Shown here piece by piece: positions 8,310 through 50,854 of a DNA stretch of 64,000 nt. The position numbers and the translations under genes are program-made. The notes below the pieces were generated by a model. The model saw only the letters and a program-made list of their open reading frames with translations, searched no databases and was not told the DNA's origin. The stretch is from Methanobacteriota archaeon (GTDB lineage: Archaea > Halobacteriota > Bog-38 > Methanoflorentales > Methanoflorentaceae): contig CAVRAO010000012.1 in the NCBI GenBank assembly GCA_963719035.1, forward strand, positions 1 to 64,000, in the 5' to 3' direction. Each line of letters starts with the position of its first letter. Within the stretch, counting starts at the first letter, position 1.

Positions 8310-8609
8310 ATGGGTCTTATTAAACTGATGTTTCTGCCATTGAGAATGCTGATGTGGCCCGTAATGGCCCCGTTGCGTATGTTAATGTGGCCATTCAAGA
8401 TGGCATTTCGTTTCGGCACGGTGATGCTACTGTTCGCGCAGCTTATGGTTATGTTGTTCTTGGCTGCCATGTTCATCATGTTCACTGTTATCCCAACCGT
8501 CATTTGGGGGTTGTGTTGGATAATGAAGAAAAAAAAGCACATGGGACGGCTGGGACAGCATGGAAAAATGCATATGCACATGCCCACACCCCGTCGGTTT
8601 AAACTTTAA
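8310..8609 (+). CDS. Met-rich, basic, hydrophobic 99-aa membrane protein
   Basis: RBS AAGGAGGTT; PLRMLMWP twice; 18 Met, no Asp or Glu; His/Met tail. Confidence 0.7.
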   Translation: MGLIKLMFLPLRMLMWPVMAPLRMLMWPFKMAFRFGTVMLLFAQLMVMLFLAAMFIMFTVIPTVIWGLCWIMKKKKHMGRLGQHGKMHMHMPTPRRFKL

Positions 8610-8687
8610 CCTGGACAAACAACAGCGCTGTAAACTTAAGGAAACCCCTACGGTGAATTTACTATAGAAGCGCTGACTTTTTTTGCG

Positions 8688-8857
8688 CTTGCGAAGCTTG
8701 TTAGTCTTGTAAACGACGATATGCCCCCAAAAATAGACGTTAGGATTTCGAAAAAACGGTTGAGATAGATACAGGCTAATCGTTTTTCTTGACTCGACTT
8801 TTAACTATTACTGGGCATCATCATCAGCCGTAGCACACGAGCTTAGAAGAACGCAAG
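8688..8857 (+). ncRNA. Candidate rod-like structured RNA or 3' UTR
   Basis: Five collinear helices of 6-10 bp, detailed in findings. Confidence 0.4.
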
Positions 8858-11465: not shown

Positions 11466-11993
11466 TTACACCCATCTCCCAAGAATGCCTGAGACTATCG
11501 ACTCTAATCCGAAGATTACCAGGAACACCGCGAGCAGGAACACGAGCGTTGCCAAGCCGACACCCGGGAATATTATCACGGCAAAGCCTATGATAATGCC
11601 AAGTATCCCGACGATGAGCCCTCCTGCTGTACCGCGCGCGGCACTAGCTATCCCGGCAAACAACAATGCTAAGCCGAGCAGATAGACGAGCGTTAGCGAT
11701 CCATAGATAAACGGATTGGCGATTACAGCGGCGGCGATTATGATTGCCAGCGCTGACAGAATCAGATTGAGCAGTCGTCGCCATCCAGTAATGCCTTTTG
11801 CAAATACTCGTATGAAGTAGTCAATTCCAATTATAATCAGTGCGATTGCTAGGAAGAGTATGAGCGTTGCTATTGCCACTCCTGGATACGCAATAACGTA
11901 GCCGGCTAGGACAACGATGATAAAACCTGCGATGATTTCAAGGATTCGCAGCCACATAGAACTCTTTTGTTGATCAGCAGTAACAATTTCCAT
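11466..11993 (-). CDS. HdeD/DUF308 family membrane protein
   Basis: Repeated helix-Pro-helix units; RBS GGAGGTGA. Confidence 0.8.
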   Translation of the reverse strand: MEIVTADQQKSSMWLRILEIIAGFIIVVLAGYVIAYPGVAIATLILFLAIALIIIGIDYFIRVFAKGITGWRRLLNLILSALAIIIAAAVIANPFIYGSLTLVYLLGLALLFAGIASAARGTAGGLIVGILGIIIGFAVIIFPGVGLATLVFLLAVFLVIFGLESIVSGILGRWV

Positions 11994-12204: not shown

Positions 12205-12765
12205 CTAGCCGCTTTTCCTGGCTGCTCCCGATGCGATGAGCTCGATACCGAACAAGCCGAAGATCAGAGCCACCAACCAGCCGATGAGTGTTTCGCCAAG
12301 CCCAGGCCAAACGATCACTGCTATAGCAATCAGTAGCACTATTACACCAATTACTATACTTCCTGTTCTGGCCCACTGTGGCACTCCAGCGCCTACTTCG
12401 AATCCTGCGAATGATATTCGTCCAATAGCGCTTAACAATAGTCCGAGCGCGAATAGGAAGATGACCAATGCATTGCCTAAGTCCGGGTAAATTATACAAT
12501 AAGCCCCGAGAGCCAGAACAATAATCCCCAGTATGACGTTGAGTATTCTGGCCCATCCCGAAAGGACGTCTGAAGTAGCTCCGCGTACTGCTAGGAGCAC
12601 CCCGAGGATTATCAATCCTATCGCAAGCAAGGTCCTGACTAGGCCAACTCCAAGGCTCGGATTAAAAACGAAGTACACTGCTATAACAAGAAGAATTATG
12701 CCGGCAATGATCTCGAGGAGACGAGCCCACATTGGGGTACCTTTTTCAGCCATTTTTGATTTCAC
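12205..12765 (-). CDS. HdeD/DUF308 family membrane protein (tandem paralog)
   Basis: Shares W.R.LEIIAG and W.R.LN.IL with the neighbouring gene. Confidence 0.8.
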   Translation of the reverse strand: MKSKMAEKGTPMWARLLEIIAGIILLVIAVYFVFNPSLGVGLVRTLLAIGLIILGVLLAVRGATSDVLSGWARILNVILGIIVLALGAYCIIYPDLGNALVIFLFALGLLLSAIGRISFAGFEVGAGVPQWARTGSIVIGVIVLLIAIAVIVWPGLGETLIGWLVALIFGLFGIELIASGAARKSG

Positions 12766-12975
12766 CTCCTTTATAAATTGTCAGTTTTATGTTGCGTCAA
12801 GAGTTTATTTATATTTGCCGCTTTGTTAAGTCAATCAGCTCGCTTGACCGCGTTTTTGGCGCTTTTAGAGCACTGTCAAGAGCTTTGTGCAGTTTTAAAG
12901 CCGTTAGTTTGAACAGCGACTCCTAGCGAGGTAACTAGTCAACTGCTTCTACGTGCCGTATAACAGCGTTACTGC

Positions 12976-13435
12976 GTTACAGACGGATGTAACAAACCTT
13001 CTTATAGCGGTTAGCGTAAGACTTGTTTGCCAAGACCATTCAAGGCGGTTTGTTGCAGCGCCACACGTTACGTGATGTTGCTTCCTTAGAAGGTGTTTTT
13101 AAGAACAAACCATGACCTCAGTTTGGTAGCACTGCCCCAAAGGAGAATGCGTGGCGCTGCCTCCTCCTTTTTTCCATATCTCTTAGCTAGCGGCGGATTT
13201 TGCACTTATCCTAAGTTGAGGTGCAGTCTACTCATCGCAACATGTGTTGTGTGCCAATCGCATGTCTTTGCTGCGCCGTGAAGCTAACTAGCTGGAGATT
13301 GTACAACTAGACCCCTTAGCGCGTTTTTCGTAAGTTTGTAGGAGCGGGTGCAACACAAAGGATGGGACACTTTGCGATCGAACGGCCGGCATCCACTTAT
13401 CCTACTATGAAGGGGGAGAGGGACCTATGCAATCT
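12976..13435 (+). ncRNA. Candidate multi-domain structured RNA A
   Basis: Four domains closed by 8-12 bp stems; the last has five collinear helices; no credible ORF. Confidence 0.45.
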
Positions 13436-13529
13436 TAAGTAATGTTTGTCCTCCTTCGCCCTAGATCAGCAATAGGTAGATTAATAGTAAATTAATAACT
13501 AAACCGATTTTACAGGAGTTAGGGATCCA

Positions 13530-13869
13530 ATGGACACAACGAATATCGAAAGAATCCAAAAAAAGCTGCAAACGGATTGGGCCGACTGGACTAATGACGA
13601 CGACAATCAATGCATAACCATATGCAAAAAAGAGCTGATGGTTGCAATTCAGGGTACTCAACGCTTATCTCGTGAACTATGACCTAAAGACGAGAATTGA
13701 AAAGGACCCCGCCGCGAAGGTCTGTGAGTTTTGCGAGAAGACGTACAAAGGGGCCGAACCAGTCTGTAACACATGTCTATTAGACATGAAATTCAGACTC
13801 CGTAGGCTCAGCTATTTGTTAAGCGAAGAGGACATACGCAAAATATATACTGAACCCATCGTTCTGTGA
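13530..13869 (+). pseudogene. Cys4 (CxxC-x10-CxxC) small protein, copy 1, with an extra G at CAGGG (~13651)
   Basis: MDTTNIERIQKKLQTDWADW aligns with the 14390 copy; frame shifts before VLNAYLVNYDLK. Confidence 0.75.
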
Positions 13870-13925
13870 CTTAGCCTCATCACTGAGAAGAACTTTTTTT
13901 TGCATTATATTTTCCTTCTTGAGGG

Positions 13926-14320
13926 CCTAGAAGCAGTGCGTTGTGTCTTCTGTGTAACGGATGGTGCGAAATTTGGCACCGCACCCAGAAGATAGAAAGG
14001 GCCTAGACAAGTAGCTCAGACGTAATGAGTGGGATAAGCAGCAGGGTGGTCGCAATATGGCTAATAGCTGCTTATACAACTATCATTCAATCGTAGTCCC
14101 GTTAGCTGTCTACACCCTCCCGTTCGTTGCTCCAAGTGACGTAACGCGAGTGACACAACCACTCAAGAGGTAACTACCGGTTTAAGCAGCCAGTTAGTGC
14201 GTGTTCTGCGTGTTTTTAGGTATAGGAGACTCGGTGGTCGGAATGCACCCCCTACGCTCAGCCGTAATCTCCAATCAAATGCTTGGAAAGGGCAGAAACG
14301 TTCATTTTAAGCAATTGTGG
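13926..14320 (+). ncRNA. Candidate multi-domain structured RNA B
   Basis: 10-bp closing stem plus several internal hairpins; no ORF. Confidence 0.45.
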
Positions 14321-14389
14321 GCGCATTGATGCTTATAGGATAAAAAGACTAATCAAGTAGCTTGACTGTACAAGGATAAATGTGATCTA

Positions 14390-14728
14390 ATGGACCCGAT
14401 GGACATCGAAACACTCTACAAAAAGCTGCAAACGGATTGGGCCGACTGGACTGATAACGACGACCATCCATGCATAACCATATGCAAAAAAGAGCTAATA
14501 GCTGCAAATCAAGCAATCAACGCGTATCTCGTAAACTATGATCTAAAGACGAGAATTGAAAAGGACCCTACCCCGAAGGTCTGTGAGTTTTGCGAGAAGA
14601 CGTACAAGGGGGCTGAACCAGTCTGCGACAAATGTCTATTAGACATAAAACTAAGGCTCCGTAGGTTTAGCTTTTTATTAAACGAAGAGGACATGCGCAG
14701 GGTATATGGTGAACTGTTAGATCGGTAA
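14390..14728 (+). CDS. Cys4 putative Zn-binding small protein, copy 2 (intact)
   Basis: CEFC..x10..CDKC, plus CITIC; close paralog of 13530. Confidence 0.75.
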   Translation: MDPMDIETLYKKLQTDWADWTDNDDHPCITICKKELIAANQAINAYLVNYDLKTRIEKDPTPKVCEFCEKTYKGAEPVCDKCLLDIKLRLRRFSFLLNEEDMRRVYGELLDR

Positions 14729-15012
14729 CTTAGCCCCCCTCAAAACTGCCGGATCTTGAATAATATTCTCGTTTTTGAAGGCCAAAAAGCAGTAGTTTAC
14801 GTCATCTTTGTAATGGCTGGTATATGGAGTTTCAGCTAAGCACGCTGGTTTGCGATGACTCGGACAAGGTTGTAATTTACGCACCAGCGTGCTGCGTACC
14901 ACTGAAGGTAATCAATTCGGCACAACAAGACCGATCATTTCGTCTTAGCAATATATAGAGCGCTGCGACCTTTCCAATGGCTTTTTTTGATGATTTTAAT
15001 GACTTACGCGCG

Positions 15013-15222
15013 TTAGTCCATAAAGTAGTCAAGCGCCTCTGGACAGCGGTTCGTTAATTGTTCGTAGAACCTCCGAGTGAGGTCTCGCGTGCTTGTATCG
15101 AGAGCGTGCTTATAAGCTTCTACGAGAGGGGCTGGCAGCTTTCTTTTTCGCTTCATAATGGTAACGACGGTCTCTAAGGATACATCAACCTCTTCCGAGG
15201 AACTCCAGATACTGTCTGTCAT
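15013..15222 (-). CDS. Small hypothetical protein
   Basis: Helical protein-like translation from MTDSIW. Confidence 0.45.
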   Translation of the reverse strand: MTDSIWSSSEEVDVSLETVVTIMKRKRKLPAPLVEAYKHALDTSTRDLTRRFYEQLTNRCPEALDYFMD

Positions 15223-15482
15223 GCTATTACGGTTAATCCGTCTTTCTAGATAAGACCGTGTCACCCTTGTCGCTCACGTGCTAAACCGACACTCGAAGGT
15301 TGAGGCGTTGCAGTGGTTTGCGTTGATGCGTTCGAACCCGCTTGCCGTTAGCAGCCGCATACCATCTCCTACAACACATCGCGGCCTTCAAATAGCTGTG
15401 CGCGATTTAAATAGGACGACCAACAGAGACGACAAAGAGCAATCGACGCATAAATTTAGCGCTCTTGTAGGAGGGGGCGATT

Positions 15483-50304: not shown

Positions 50305-50854
50305 CTCTTCATTCGAAGGCATATAAGGTCTCGGTCATTTCGCAAAATCATTAACTGTCGTCGCCAGTACACCTTCATCCCGCGCGATTTCACCAGATGG
50401 ATGCTGGCCGACGTAGCGCGACTAAAATAGCGAGTAAAAAAGCGGTAATCACGAGCAATGGGGTCGCATCAAGATACACGGTGACTTCCTCAATCGGCTA
50501 GCGATCTTGTGGGAGTCATCAGCCTTATGCGATTACAGTGAACTCCATCACCCGTATGTGGGACATAACCATGTTCTTACATAGCTATTACTACTATCTC
50601 GCTCCCGCACGAAAAGTGCTTTGGGGACATCAAGTCACTTGGAATGAGTGAATGTATCCAACAAACAGCTGAAATCGAGGACACGAAGTGCGGGAACAGA
50701 CGACACTGAAAGAGAGCGAAAATGTTAAACAGTTGGAATACCAATTGATATATTGACTAAACCCCCTCCTTGCAAGTCGATATGTTGCACGTCTTGTTCT
50801 TGGGCGTGGTTTAGTCTCTCCGCAATTTATTCAATCGATAACCTTACACAATCT

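Follow-up and report, generated by a model that had tools for sequence, protein, structure and literature searches.

A candidate small RNA gene beside duplicated Cys4 mini-genes in one genus of peat methanogens

What kind of genetic unit has short genes for a cysteine-rich protein set apart by long stretches without conserved reading frames? The question is raised by positions 12976 to 15012 of the 64,000-nt stretch of archaeal DNA considered here (the window). The initial annotation saw in this region an alternating array of three structured RNAs and two mini-genes, in effect a duplicated module of RNA and zinc-finger protein. The best overall explanation, which I favor by a modest degree, is a genus-specific neighborhood in which three small transcription units stand separately and do not form an RNA/protein array. 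The best reading of the conserved element upstream of the mini-genes (E1) is an independent candidate sRNA gene beside self-contained mini-gene transcription units. The host archaeon carries mcrA, and its relatives are recorded from metagenomes of peat.

The mini-genes and their protein

Both mini-genes lie on the + strand, copy 1 at 13530–13869 (C-terminal EPIVL subtype) and copy 2 at 14390–14728 (C-terminal ELLDR subtype). Their paralogy, claimed at the outset, is plain from two blocks of direct repeats: 13524–13651/14384–14511 (86%) and 13658–13876/14517–14735 (85%). The claim that both encode proteins of about 112 amino acids holds for copy 2, which is intact at 112 aa, but not for copy 1, which is frameshifted. 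A 1-nt insertion at 13653–13655 splits copy 1 into two ORFs (13530–13682 and 13642–13869), and the start-to-start spacing of the repeats shifts from 860 in the first block to 859 in the second. The window reads GGG at this site, where two genomes (G006 and G005) and a metagenome locus (L113) read GG, and orthologues of copy 1 in relatives are intact. Copy 1 is here either inactivated by the insertion or mis-assembled.

Of the motifs listed in the initial annotation, DWADW, CxxC-x10-CxxC and RLRR are borne by the ORF of copy 2, but the two cysteines of the N-terminal CxxxC are not conserved together, as C32 is replaced by R or Y in several of 19 aligned members. The same alignment shows C79 and C82 to be invariant and C65 and C68 to be kept in at least 90% of sequences. 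A structure model predicts a helix, a long helix, a Cys4 hairpin and further helices, with strands at residues 62–64 and 71–73 and a helix from residue 80. Sequence and model together place four conserved cysteine ligands on a beta-hairpin, as in a zinc ribbon, and the hairpin would be expected to bind zinc.

Neither the protein nor the RNAs had been recognized initially, and neither proved to belong to a described family, whether in Pfam, in Rfam or, searched by profile, among 1.84 billion representatives. That profile search gave 8 cluster matches to the mini-protein at E ≤ 1e-3, and a word search for the family gathered 46 proteins. Nothing significant was found in Pfam, PHROGs, NCBIfam or PADLOC: Pfam DZR_2 reached 13.2 bits (E 0.079), short of its gathering threshold of 27, and the match to the ComF N-terminal family of NCBIfam (E 0.017) was far below its cut-off. 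The PDB held no match by sequence and, by Foldseek, none at E ≤ 1e-3. The best match in a wide VIA-align search had a Z of 6.3, with generic helical matches, and the best score in the ESM Atlas was 0.89, with unnamed clusters. Members occur in 15 of the 17 other genomes of the genus, in none of six genomes of the sister genus and in none of 37 other genomes of the phylum. As far as these sequence searches reach, the mini-protein is an orphan family confined to one genus of peat methanogens.

The flanks of the two genes show how much of the locus was duplicated. An AT-rich box precedes copy 1 on the + strand (13480–13499), with a block, ATTAATAA, that is conserved in copy-1-type genes some 30–50 nt ahead of the ATG. 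Another precedes copy 2 (14336–14354, + strand), at the start of the unit common to copy-2-type genes, and this one is conserved in all eight aligned copy-2-type loci, which represent five different genomic contexts. Both boxes are possible promoters. Copy 1 is followed by a run of eight T's (13894–13901), terminator-like as read from the sequence, a shorter version of which is retained in G006 and G005; copy 2 is followed by a terminator-like run of five (14772–14776) that ends the shared unit, and there ATTCTCGTTTTT is retained in six of the eight aligned loci. Each mini-gene would have its own promoter-like box some 35–55 nt upstream and its own T-run terminator some 25–50 nt downstream. 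Similarity among the eight copy-2-type loci extends from AT-rich box to T-run only, and what was duplicated at this locus is the gene together with flanks of about 55 nt (upstream) and about 50 nt (downstream), not a module of RNA plus protein. In another genome, G010, the gene lies within a 1.1-kb repeat present at two places.

The spacers

The initial annotation described the flanks of the mini-genes as free of ORFs and densely pairing. ORFs of 40–62 aa do exist in them, though none is conserved. The dense pairing was not borne out by comparison of minimum free energies with those of dinucleotide shuffles: the z-scores are +0.81 for 13176–13529, −1.05 for 13870–14389, +0.97 for 14729–15012 and −1.32 for 13025–13178, the segment taken for E1.

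On the initial model, the RNA encoded by each of the three spacers would be structured and would act together with the zinc-finger protein, whether in an RNP, as an antitoxin or as a leader. In its favor are the length of the spacers (about 260–760 nt), their lack of conserved ORFs and the ORF-free flanks, of 350–600 nt, that copy-2-type genes have elsewhere. Such stretches are common, however: 268 in this genome run for 500 nt or more with no ORF that reaches 100 aa, and 12766–14389 ranks 18th among these. Spacers B and C fold no better than shuffles, the very result that had been named beforehand as refuting the alternating array. No second copy of E1 was found within 12500–15300, spacers B and C included, and no spacer has an Rfam match, a permissive search of 12700–15100 giving one chance-level match to suhB inside coding sequence. 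The 10-mer GAGGTAACTA thought to be shared by the upstream elements does occur exactly twice in the window (12928 and 14167), but the combination ACTC...GAGGTAACTA is lost at both sites in the nearest relatives. In other genomes the flanks of copy-2-type genes are unrelated in sequence, and E1 is absent from them.

The three flanks for which z-scores are given above are conserved in the nearest relatives only, with indels, and conservation of spacers B and C is limited to the three genomes with the tandem layout. Spacer B (13902–14335, + strand) is present in only two of the 17 other genus genomes, G006 and G005, with 77–85% identity and indels that are not multiples of three; its structure conservation index is 0.68, as compared to 0.69 for a coding control, and its covariation term is positive. 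Positions 13911–14072 are missing from the close relatives L146 and L133. In the part from 14077 to 14335, identity to G006 and G005 reaches 81–85%, on a par with that of the coding sequence ORF83, and this part is also found upstream of copy 1 in G006 and L146; it may have some function. Spacer C (14777–15012, + strand) has 72–75% identity to G006 and G005 with 11–24 gap columns and a structure conservation index of 0.47, and the right arm of its main hairpin (14840–14894) is deleted in G005. The spacer from E1 to copy 1 (13174–13479, + strand; A3 type) has an index of 0.33 over four genomes; G006, L146 and the G009 clade carry other types of sequence in its place, the G009 type having an index of 0.19 over 23 sequences. 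Blocks common to all types of this spacer lie about 80–110 nt before the ATG of the mini-gene. The reading of the locus as an alternating array is very improbable, and 13174–13479, 13902–14335 and 14777–15012 are best explained as unstructured sequence that evolves fast and was left behind as gene units were duplicated and recombined.

E1 and its relation to the mini-gene

E1 is a discrete conserved block of about 190 nt (12988–13173) inside spacer A. Near its 5' end is a box on the + strand (12989–13007), an A-rich BRE-like stretch followed by a TATA-like CTTATAG, that is nearly invariant in 16 aligned copies of E1 and resembles, compared by eye, the boxes upstream of tRNA genes in the same genome. 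(The window itself gave no tRNA or tmRNA.) The sequence suggests that the box is the promoter of E1 and that the archaeal terminator-like T-run at 13168–13173 (+ strand), where conservation stops in all full-length copies, is its terminator. A scan for bacterial-type promoters and terminators gave no more sites than in shuffles. The predicted transcript, a candidate small RNA of about 140 nt (13030–13173, + strand, its ends being estimates), would have three parts: a hairpin on the 5' side, a domain enclosed by a 10-bp helix (5' arm GCAGCGCCAC at 13055–13064, 3' arm GTGGCGCTGC at 13151–13160, both as read on the + strand) and a pyrimidine-rich tail ending in T6.

Conservation is 0.64–0.87 in E1, 0.01–0.56 in the spacer and 0.49–0.77 in the gene, so that of E1, sharply bounded, at least matches that of coding sequence. 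No reading frame is open across all 16 copies: indels of 5, 7 and 1–2 nt, along with stops, disrupt every frame across clades. The secondary structure is weakly supported. Besides the modest fold z-score, the structure conservation index of 0.55–0.68 is not above that of coding controls (0.69–0.93), and compensatory changes occur in 3 of 35 predicted pairs, a number reached by 73 of 500 and 234 of 500 shuffles, in sequences that vary little. All ten pairs of the long-range helix are identical in 15 of 15 sequences, and since the helix never varies, it provides no covariation evidence and could equally be an inverted repeat at the level of DNA. In the 5' hairpin, an alternation of U-G and C-G keeps pairing only on the + strand. 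Its long unpaired stretches, which are invariant, suggest sequence-specific pairing or the binding of a protein. E1 is probably a small RNA gene.

By BLAST, E1 is found in 14 of 17 genomes of the genus and in none of six from the sister genus, and a covariance model gives the same counts. Some 290–360 nt downstream of it, the same strand bears a copy-1-type gene in 13 of the 14 genomes and in 39 of the 41 metagenome loci with enough sequence downstream of E1 (37 of 39 when the suspect contig L145 is left out). The distance to the gene is 288–356 nt in 38 of the 39 metagenome loci that bear it. On L145 the module appears duplicated, as two inverted E1-plus-gene copies with divergent proteins; this I have rejected as a probable artefact of assembly or read errors, because frameshifts abound in its ORFs and the contig is a palindrome centered on a broken DUF308 gene. 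On the other side of the locus is ORF83 (15013–15264, − strand), a small gene that is limited to the genus, runs convergent to the mini-genes and is part of the same conserved neighborhood. It has matches in all 17 genus genomes, one to four in each, and in none of the six sister-genus genomes, and none in Pfam, NCBIfam or PADLOC.

This linkage is what survives of the initial idea of a module: E1 is conserved upstream of the copy-1-type gene, although the unit duplicated is the gene alone with its short flanks. Might the E1 RNA and the mini-protein nonetheless be functional partners, in an RNP or with E1 regulating the mini-gene in trans or in cis, and the module be kept together for that reason? 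The two are restricted to the same genus, they are consistently adjacent, the distance between them is narrowly kept despite the unconserved sequence of the spacer, and in four metagenome loci (L120, L126, L131 and L140) they are inverted together relative to DUF308 and ORF83. The constant distance, the joint inversion and the shared blocks before the ATG are hints of a functional tie that a model of independent units leaves unexplained. Against this, all the loci are kin within one genus, whose neighborhoods are syntenic as wholes, and DUF308 and ORF83 are linked to E1 as consistently as is the mini-gene. E1 is present without a mini-gene in G016, L143 and L149, and the copy-2-type genes elsewhere and the divergent homologue in G001 have no E1 beside them. 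In G005, E1 is truncated, with the 3' helix arm and the terminator lost, yet the gene is intact. Duplexes of E1 with the regions of the mini-gene, ORF83 and DUF308 were no better than those with 400 random segments of the genome, by a crude calculation that ignores intramolecular structure. That E1 is not duplicated, is absent beside copy-2-type genes and is present without a mini-gene speaks against an obligate RNA-protein pair, and the reading as partners is unlikely. A specific form of it, rather doubtful, would make E1 a new lineage-specific archaeal RNA that the neighboring Cys4 protein recognizes through the RNA's invariant clamp helix and its roughly 40-nt unpaired stretches; the two would form a bipartite RNP or regulatory module that originated in one genus of uncultured peat methanogens and whose protein gene later spread to other sites as a self-contained unit.

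Two other readings concern E1 by itself. As a cis-acting leader or attenuator, it would have transcription begin at its own promoter and allow regulated read-through of its T-run, some 330 nt onward into the first mini-gene. Its orientation and constant distance would fit, the GC-rich helix directly before the U-run resembles a terminator or attenuator, and the organism does use RNA leaders, to judge from the fluoride riboswitch at 50503–50561, far from the locus and the sole element in the window to pass at Rfam gathering level. This reading is nevertheless quite improbable: in G016, L143 and L149 only a convergent gene follows E1, the mini-gene is preceded, a short way before the ATG, by a conserved AT-rich box of its own, the intervening spacer is conserved in neither sequence nor structure, the helix encloses about 85 nt and so is not a local terminator hairpin, and no Rfam family matches. 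Alternatively, E1 might act as DNA, either as a protein-binding regulatory region or as a recombination site around the 10-bp inverted repeat beside a variable region. Here the arms that never vary, the weak structural statistics and the highly variable content 3' of E1 are all in favor, the interval to ORF83 ranging among genomes from 106 to 3209 nt in the pattern of an insertion hot spot. I consider this, too, rather unlikely, given a promoter-like 5' box and a 3' T-run on one strand, pairing preserved by U-G/C-G alternation on the + strand only, and no recombinase gene nearby. An inverton in particular is rejected, because the interior of E1 has the same orientation in 48 of 48 metagenome and 16 of 16 reference-genome matches.

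There remains E1 as a gene of its own, which would run from the BRE/TATA-like box to the T-run and produce a non-coding RNA most likely acting in trans. G016, where E1 stands alone between DUF308 and ORF83, indicates that it is an independent unit. As to possible targets, exact complements of 14–16 nt across the genome were few and at chance level.

The gain from this locus is descriptive rather than conceptual, in that one candidate sRNA gene and one orphan zinc-finger family are left. Almost nothing is known, however, of gene regulation in this uncultured methanogen lineage, and the candidate sRNA and the two genus-specific families of small proteins (the mini-gene and ORF83) offer examples of young, lineage-restricted regulators and concrete targets for metatranscriptomes of peat.

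Comparison with known systems

Like riboswitch and attenuator leaders, E1 is conserved, non-coding, on the strand of the downstream gene and ended by a helix and U-run. Unlike them, it is about 350 nt from that gene across a non-conserved spacer, belongs to no Rfam family and persists without the gene in G016, L143 and L149, so it is not the 5' leader in all members. A type III toxin-antitoxin system was also considered and rejected, since neither E1 nor the spacers contain tandem or direct repeats beyond the gene duplication and short pairs at chance level.

There is some resemblance to box C/D sRNAs: most of the 16 copies have a C-box-like GUGAUGU after a terminal helix, with UUGA or CUGA ahead of the 3' arm. 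This D-like box is missing from the E1 of the window and its clade and from L026 and L028, and E1 is about twice as long as is usual in archaea. The nearest family in Rfam is eukaryotic, SNORD125, to which one copy (G009) has the only match, sub-threshold at 17.5 bits (E 0.93) against a gathering score of 56. In the 13-kb region that contains the rRNA operon there is no perfect complement to E1 of at least 11 nt, and a single 10-mer falls in a variable hairpin of E1. A box C/D RNA would need a C box (RUGAUGA) and a D box (CUGA) beside a terminal stem, in a K-turn, and upstream of D or D' a guide of 10–12 nt to rRNA or tRNA. Identification as a box C/D RNA was rejected, and the K-turn was dropped after a search by eye gave no canonical register.

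The archaeal trans-acting sRNAs of methanogens and halophiles (those of Methanosarcina mazei, for example) are intergenic stand-alone units of about 100–250 nt, with their own BRE/TATA-like promoter, an oligo-T end, a narrow range and conserved unpaired stretches. E1 is like them as a predicted intergenic stand-alone unit within that size range, and in its promoter-like box, its oligo-T end, its narrow range and its conserved unpaired stretches, which could pair with targets; it differs in that no relationship by sequence or Rfam and no target was found, and in its weakly supported structure.

For the mini-protein, the comparison is with small zinc-finger proteins of archaea: Brz of Halobacterium salinarum and, in Haloferax volcanii, the C(P)XCG micro-proteins. 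The latter are described as having at most 70 aa and two C(P)XCG motifs (PMC6562870, PMC10716476, PMC11241148, PMC2253796). The mini-protein has no detectable homology to either, its family being confined to one genus, and it differs from the C(P)XCG proteins in its 112 aa, its CEFC and (P)VCxxC motifs and its extra helical parts. What it shares with these small proteins is to be a small archaeal protein with its own gene and a single Cys4 site as its only recognizable feature. By this analogy, a nucleic-acid-binding or regulatory role is plausible for the mini-protein.

Folding and conservation of the spacers

The initial annotation read this locus as an alternating array of structured RNAs and Zn-finger mini-genes, a duplicated module of RNA and protein. 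The observations behind that reading hold in part, but the interpretation as an array is not supported. All three spacers fold no better than shuffles, with z-scores relative to dinucleotide shuffles of +0.81 for the spacer between the conserved block E1 and mini-gene copy 1 (A3 type; 13176-13529), −1.05 for the one between the two copies (B; 13870-14389), and +0.97 for the one between copy 2 and the small gene ORF83 (C; 14729-15012). None has a match in Rfam, whose only match in the window is a fluoride riboswitch (crcB motif; 50503-50561, − strand; 38.1 bits vs. a gathering score of 34). The structure conservation index is 0.33 for A3, 0.68 for B and 0.47 for C, as compared to 0.69-0.93 for coding controls; the spacer type seen most often in other genomes (23 distinct sequences) scores 0.19.

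Spacer B is present in only two of the 17 genomes of the genus, G006 and G005, the match being confined in the remainder to its last ~50 nt. Against these two genomes it is 77-85% identical, with non-triplet indels, and spacer C 72-75% identical, while the mini-genes reach 87-94% and the coding ORF83 83-84%. The 5' part of B (13911-14072) is missing from two further loci (L146 and L133), and when four sequences of its 3' part are folded to a consensus, the covariation term is positive, i.e., a penalty. The best hairpin in C (arms near 14840 and 14884) has lost its right arm in G005. Stretches poor in ORFs are common in this genome, with 268 of at least 500 nt lacking any ORF of 100 aa or more, and the spacers of the mini-gene locus are probably unconstrained DNA. 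The 10-mer GAGGTAACTA, noted previously as shared by the upstream elements, is indeed confined to 12928 and 14167, but as the nearest relatives have it at neither site, I attribute the pair to chance. A separate short block, lying ~80-110 nt before the ATG of E1-linked mini-genes (~13445-13470 and ~14296-14312 in the window), carries TTTAAGCAAT, followed by a T-run or a G-rich stretch, and is common to all three spacer types, which are otherwise unrelated. Possibly it acts as a terminator or belongs to a longer 5' UTR.

A conserved non-coding block upstream of copy 1

Comparison with relatives brought out E1 (~12988-13173, + strand), which is 74-94% identical across the genus and occurs once in the window's genome. 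Mean pairwise identity per 30-column bin (15 sequences, excluding the truncated E1 of G005) is 0.64-0.87 in E1, 0.01-0.56 in the adjoining spacer and 0.49-0.77 in the mini-gene. E1 is detected by BLAST and by a covariance model alike in 14 of 17 genomes of the genus and in none of six from the sister genus. Two of the three genomes lacking it have contig breaks beside ORF83 or the mini-gene; the third has a distant ORF83 paralogue and no other ORF83 that could be found. Because clade-specific indels (5, 7 and 1-2 nt) and stops break every frame, E1 is evidently non-coding. Divergent from it lie two tandem genes for DUF308 (HdeD-like) membrane proteins (11466-11993 and 12205-12765, both − strand), whose DNA varies more within the genus than that of E1.

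The 5' 20 nt of E1 contain an A-rich-plus-TATA-like box (12989-13007, + strand) that resembles, by eye, those preceding this genome's tRNA genes; ~20 less conserved nt follow, and then a core that ends exactly at a T-run (13168-13173, + strand). The predicted RNA (~13030-13172, + strand) would have a 5' hairpin, in which the alternation of U-G and C-G is consistent with the + strand, and an invariant long-range helix of 10 bp (13055-13064/13151-13160), predicted to enclose a domain of ~85 nt. The structure is weakly supported: the z-score of the fold is −1.32, and double changes occur at 3 of 35 predicted pairs, a count that 73 of 500 shuffles reach when 15 sequences are used and 234 of 500 when 36 distinct metagenome sequences are used, a set in which the search pattern itself forces the helix to be invariant. 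What the alignments firmly establish is a strongly sequence-conserved, non-coding unit running from a putative promoter to a T-run.

The mini-genes and their protein

The assembly containing the window (contig C12:1-64000) is archaeal (2.19 Mb in 13 contigs, with mcrA present). The two mini-genes are indeed paralogous, with DNA identity of 85-86%, and copy 2 (14390-14728, + strand) is an uninterrupted ORF of 112 aa, but copy 1 (13530-13869, + strand) is broken into two ORFs (13530-13682 and 13642-13869). One extra G accounts both for the split and for the change in repeat-block register from 860 to 859 nt: copy 1 has GGG at 13653-13655, vs. GG in G006, G005 and metagenome locus L113. Given that G and the unbroken frames of copy-1 orthologues in relatives, copy 1 must be a strain-specific pseudogene or an assembly error, and a programmed frameshift is rejected. 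The tandem layout is found besides the window only in G006 and G005 among reference genomes, and in some metagenome loci.

The protein occurs in 15 of the 17 other genomes of the genus, in none of six from the sister genus and in none of 37 others of the phylum. A word-based search gave 46 proteins, every one unnamed or "hypothetical", a profile search of 1.84 billion representatives matched 8 clusters at E<=1e-3, and family and fold searches gave no significant match: the family is an orphan. A homologue in G001 is divergent (38% identical). Two subtypes differ at the C-terminus (...EPIVL in the copy 1 kind, ...ELLDR in the copy 2 kind). Cysteines C65, C68, C79 and C82 show little or no variation, unlike the N-terminal CxxxC remarked on in the initial annotation, which is not conserved in the family alignment. 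An AlphaFold model (mean pLDDT 79) has helices at 6-14 and 33-57, a beta-hairpin at 62-73 bearing the first Cys pair and a helix beginning at the second, suggesting a zinc-knuckle-plus-helix arrangement.

When eight copy-2-type loci, drawn from five genomic contexts, are aligned, their similarity starts at an AT-rich box (14336-14354 in the window) that lies ~35-55 nt ahead of the ATG, and it stops at a T-run ~45 nt past the stop codon (14772-14776). Copy 1 has an analogous box (13480-13499, + strand) and a downstream T8 run (13894-13901, + strand). In G010, two copies of a 1.1-kb repeat, 88% identical, lie far apart beside ordinary genes, and each carries a copy-2-type gene. These copies (L009 1148-2240 and L020 1099-2184, at ~1.015 Mb and ~1.417 Mb of a complete genome) have ~350 nt of ORF-free flank on either side of the mini-gene, and the 3.3-kb loci show no mobility gene. 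These patterns point to each mini-gene being a transcription unit complete in itself, one that has undergone several duplications or relocations.

Linkage of E1, the mini-gene and their neighbors

A copy-1-type gene lies downstream of E1 on the same strand in 13 of the 14 genomes having E1, mostly after 320-375 nt (77 nt in G005, 144 nt in G015). Scanning metagenome contigs with a search pattern yielded 53 loci, 47 of them with E1 (48 matches in total). Where at least 700 nt follow, 39 of 41 matches have the gene at 288-356 nt (one at 135 nt), or 37 of 39 without the suspect contig L145, though many loci are near-identical kin and the counts are not independent. L145 (4069 nt) is palindromic, with two inverted copies of E1 plus mini-gene around a frameshifted DUF308 gene, and the abundance of broken frames points to an artefact of read errors or of chimeric assembly. 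In four loci (L120, L126, L131 and L140), E1 and the gene have been inverted together with respect to DUF308 and ORF83.

Against an obligate pair stand several observations. E1 directly adjoins ORF83, the mini-gene being absent, in G016, L143 and L149; no E1 was found alongside copy-2-type genes elsewhere or the G001 homologue, nor a second one in the window; and DUF308 and ORF83 are linked to E1 as constantly as the mini-gene. Moreover, the E1 of G005 (L037/L008; G005:C10 ~8449-8690) lacks both its 3' helix arm and the T-run: 77 nt before the gene it has become joined to the AT-rich box of a copy-2-type upstream region, a natural variant produced by deletion or recombination.

ORF83 (15013-15264, − strand), always within the E1 neighborhood, is found in 17 of 17 genomes of the genus (1-4 matches each) and none of six from the sister genus. 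A family search gave no match, and it forms a second genus-restricted small-protein family. Paralogues lie at G000:C8:100320-100547 and C6:74099-74293. The content between mini-gene and ORF83 differs between species, which makes the region 3' of E1 a variable one within the genus. In G010 (L056 3334-5858) this interval holds a gene for a predicted multi-pass membrane permease and ~900 nt without clear ORFs.

On the most likely reading, the locus is a genus-specific neighborhood with one candidate sRNA gene, E1, and an orphan Cys4 mini-gene in two copies, one broken. A functional partnership of E1 with the protein is the most interesting reading remaining, albeit an improbable one. Nothing on either was found in a search by the lineage's names or in the accessible part of the literature on haloarchaeal zinc-finger micro-proteins. 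Both lie outside any described family, in keeping with the initial failure to recognize them, but the kinds they represent, archaeal sRNAs and small zinc-finger proteins, are known.
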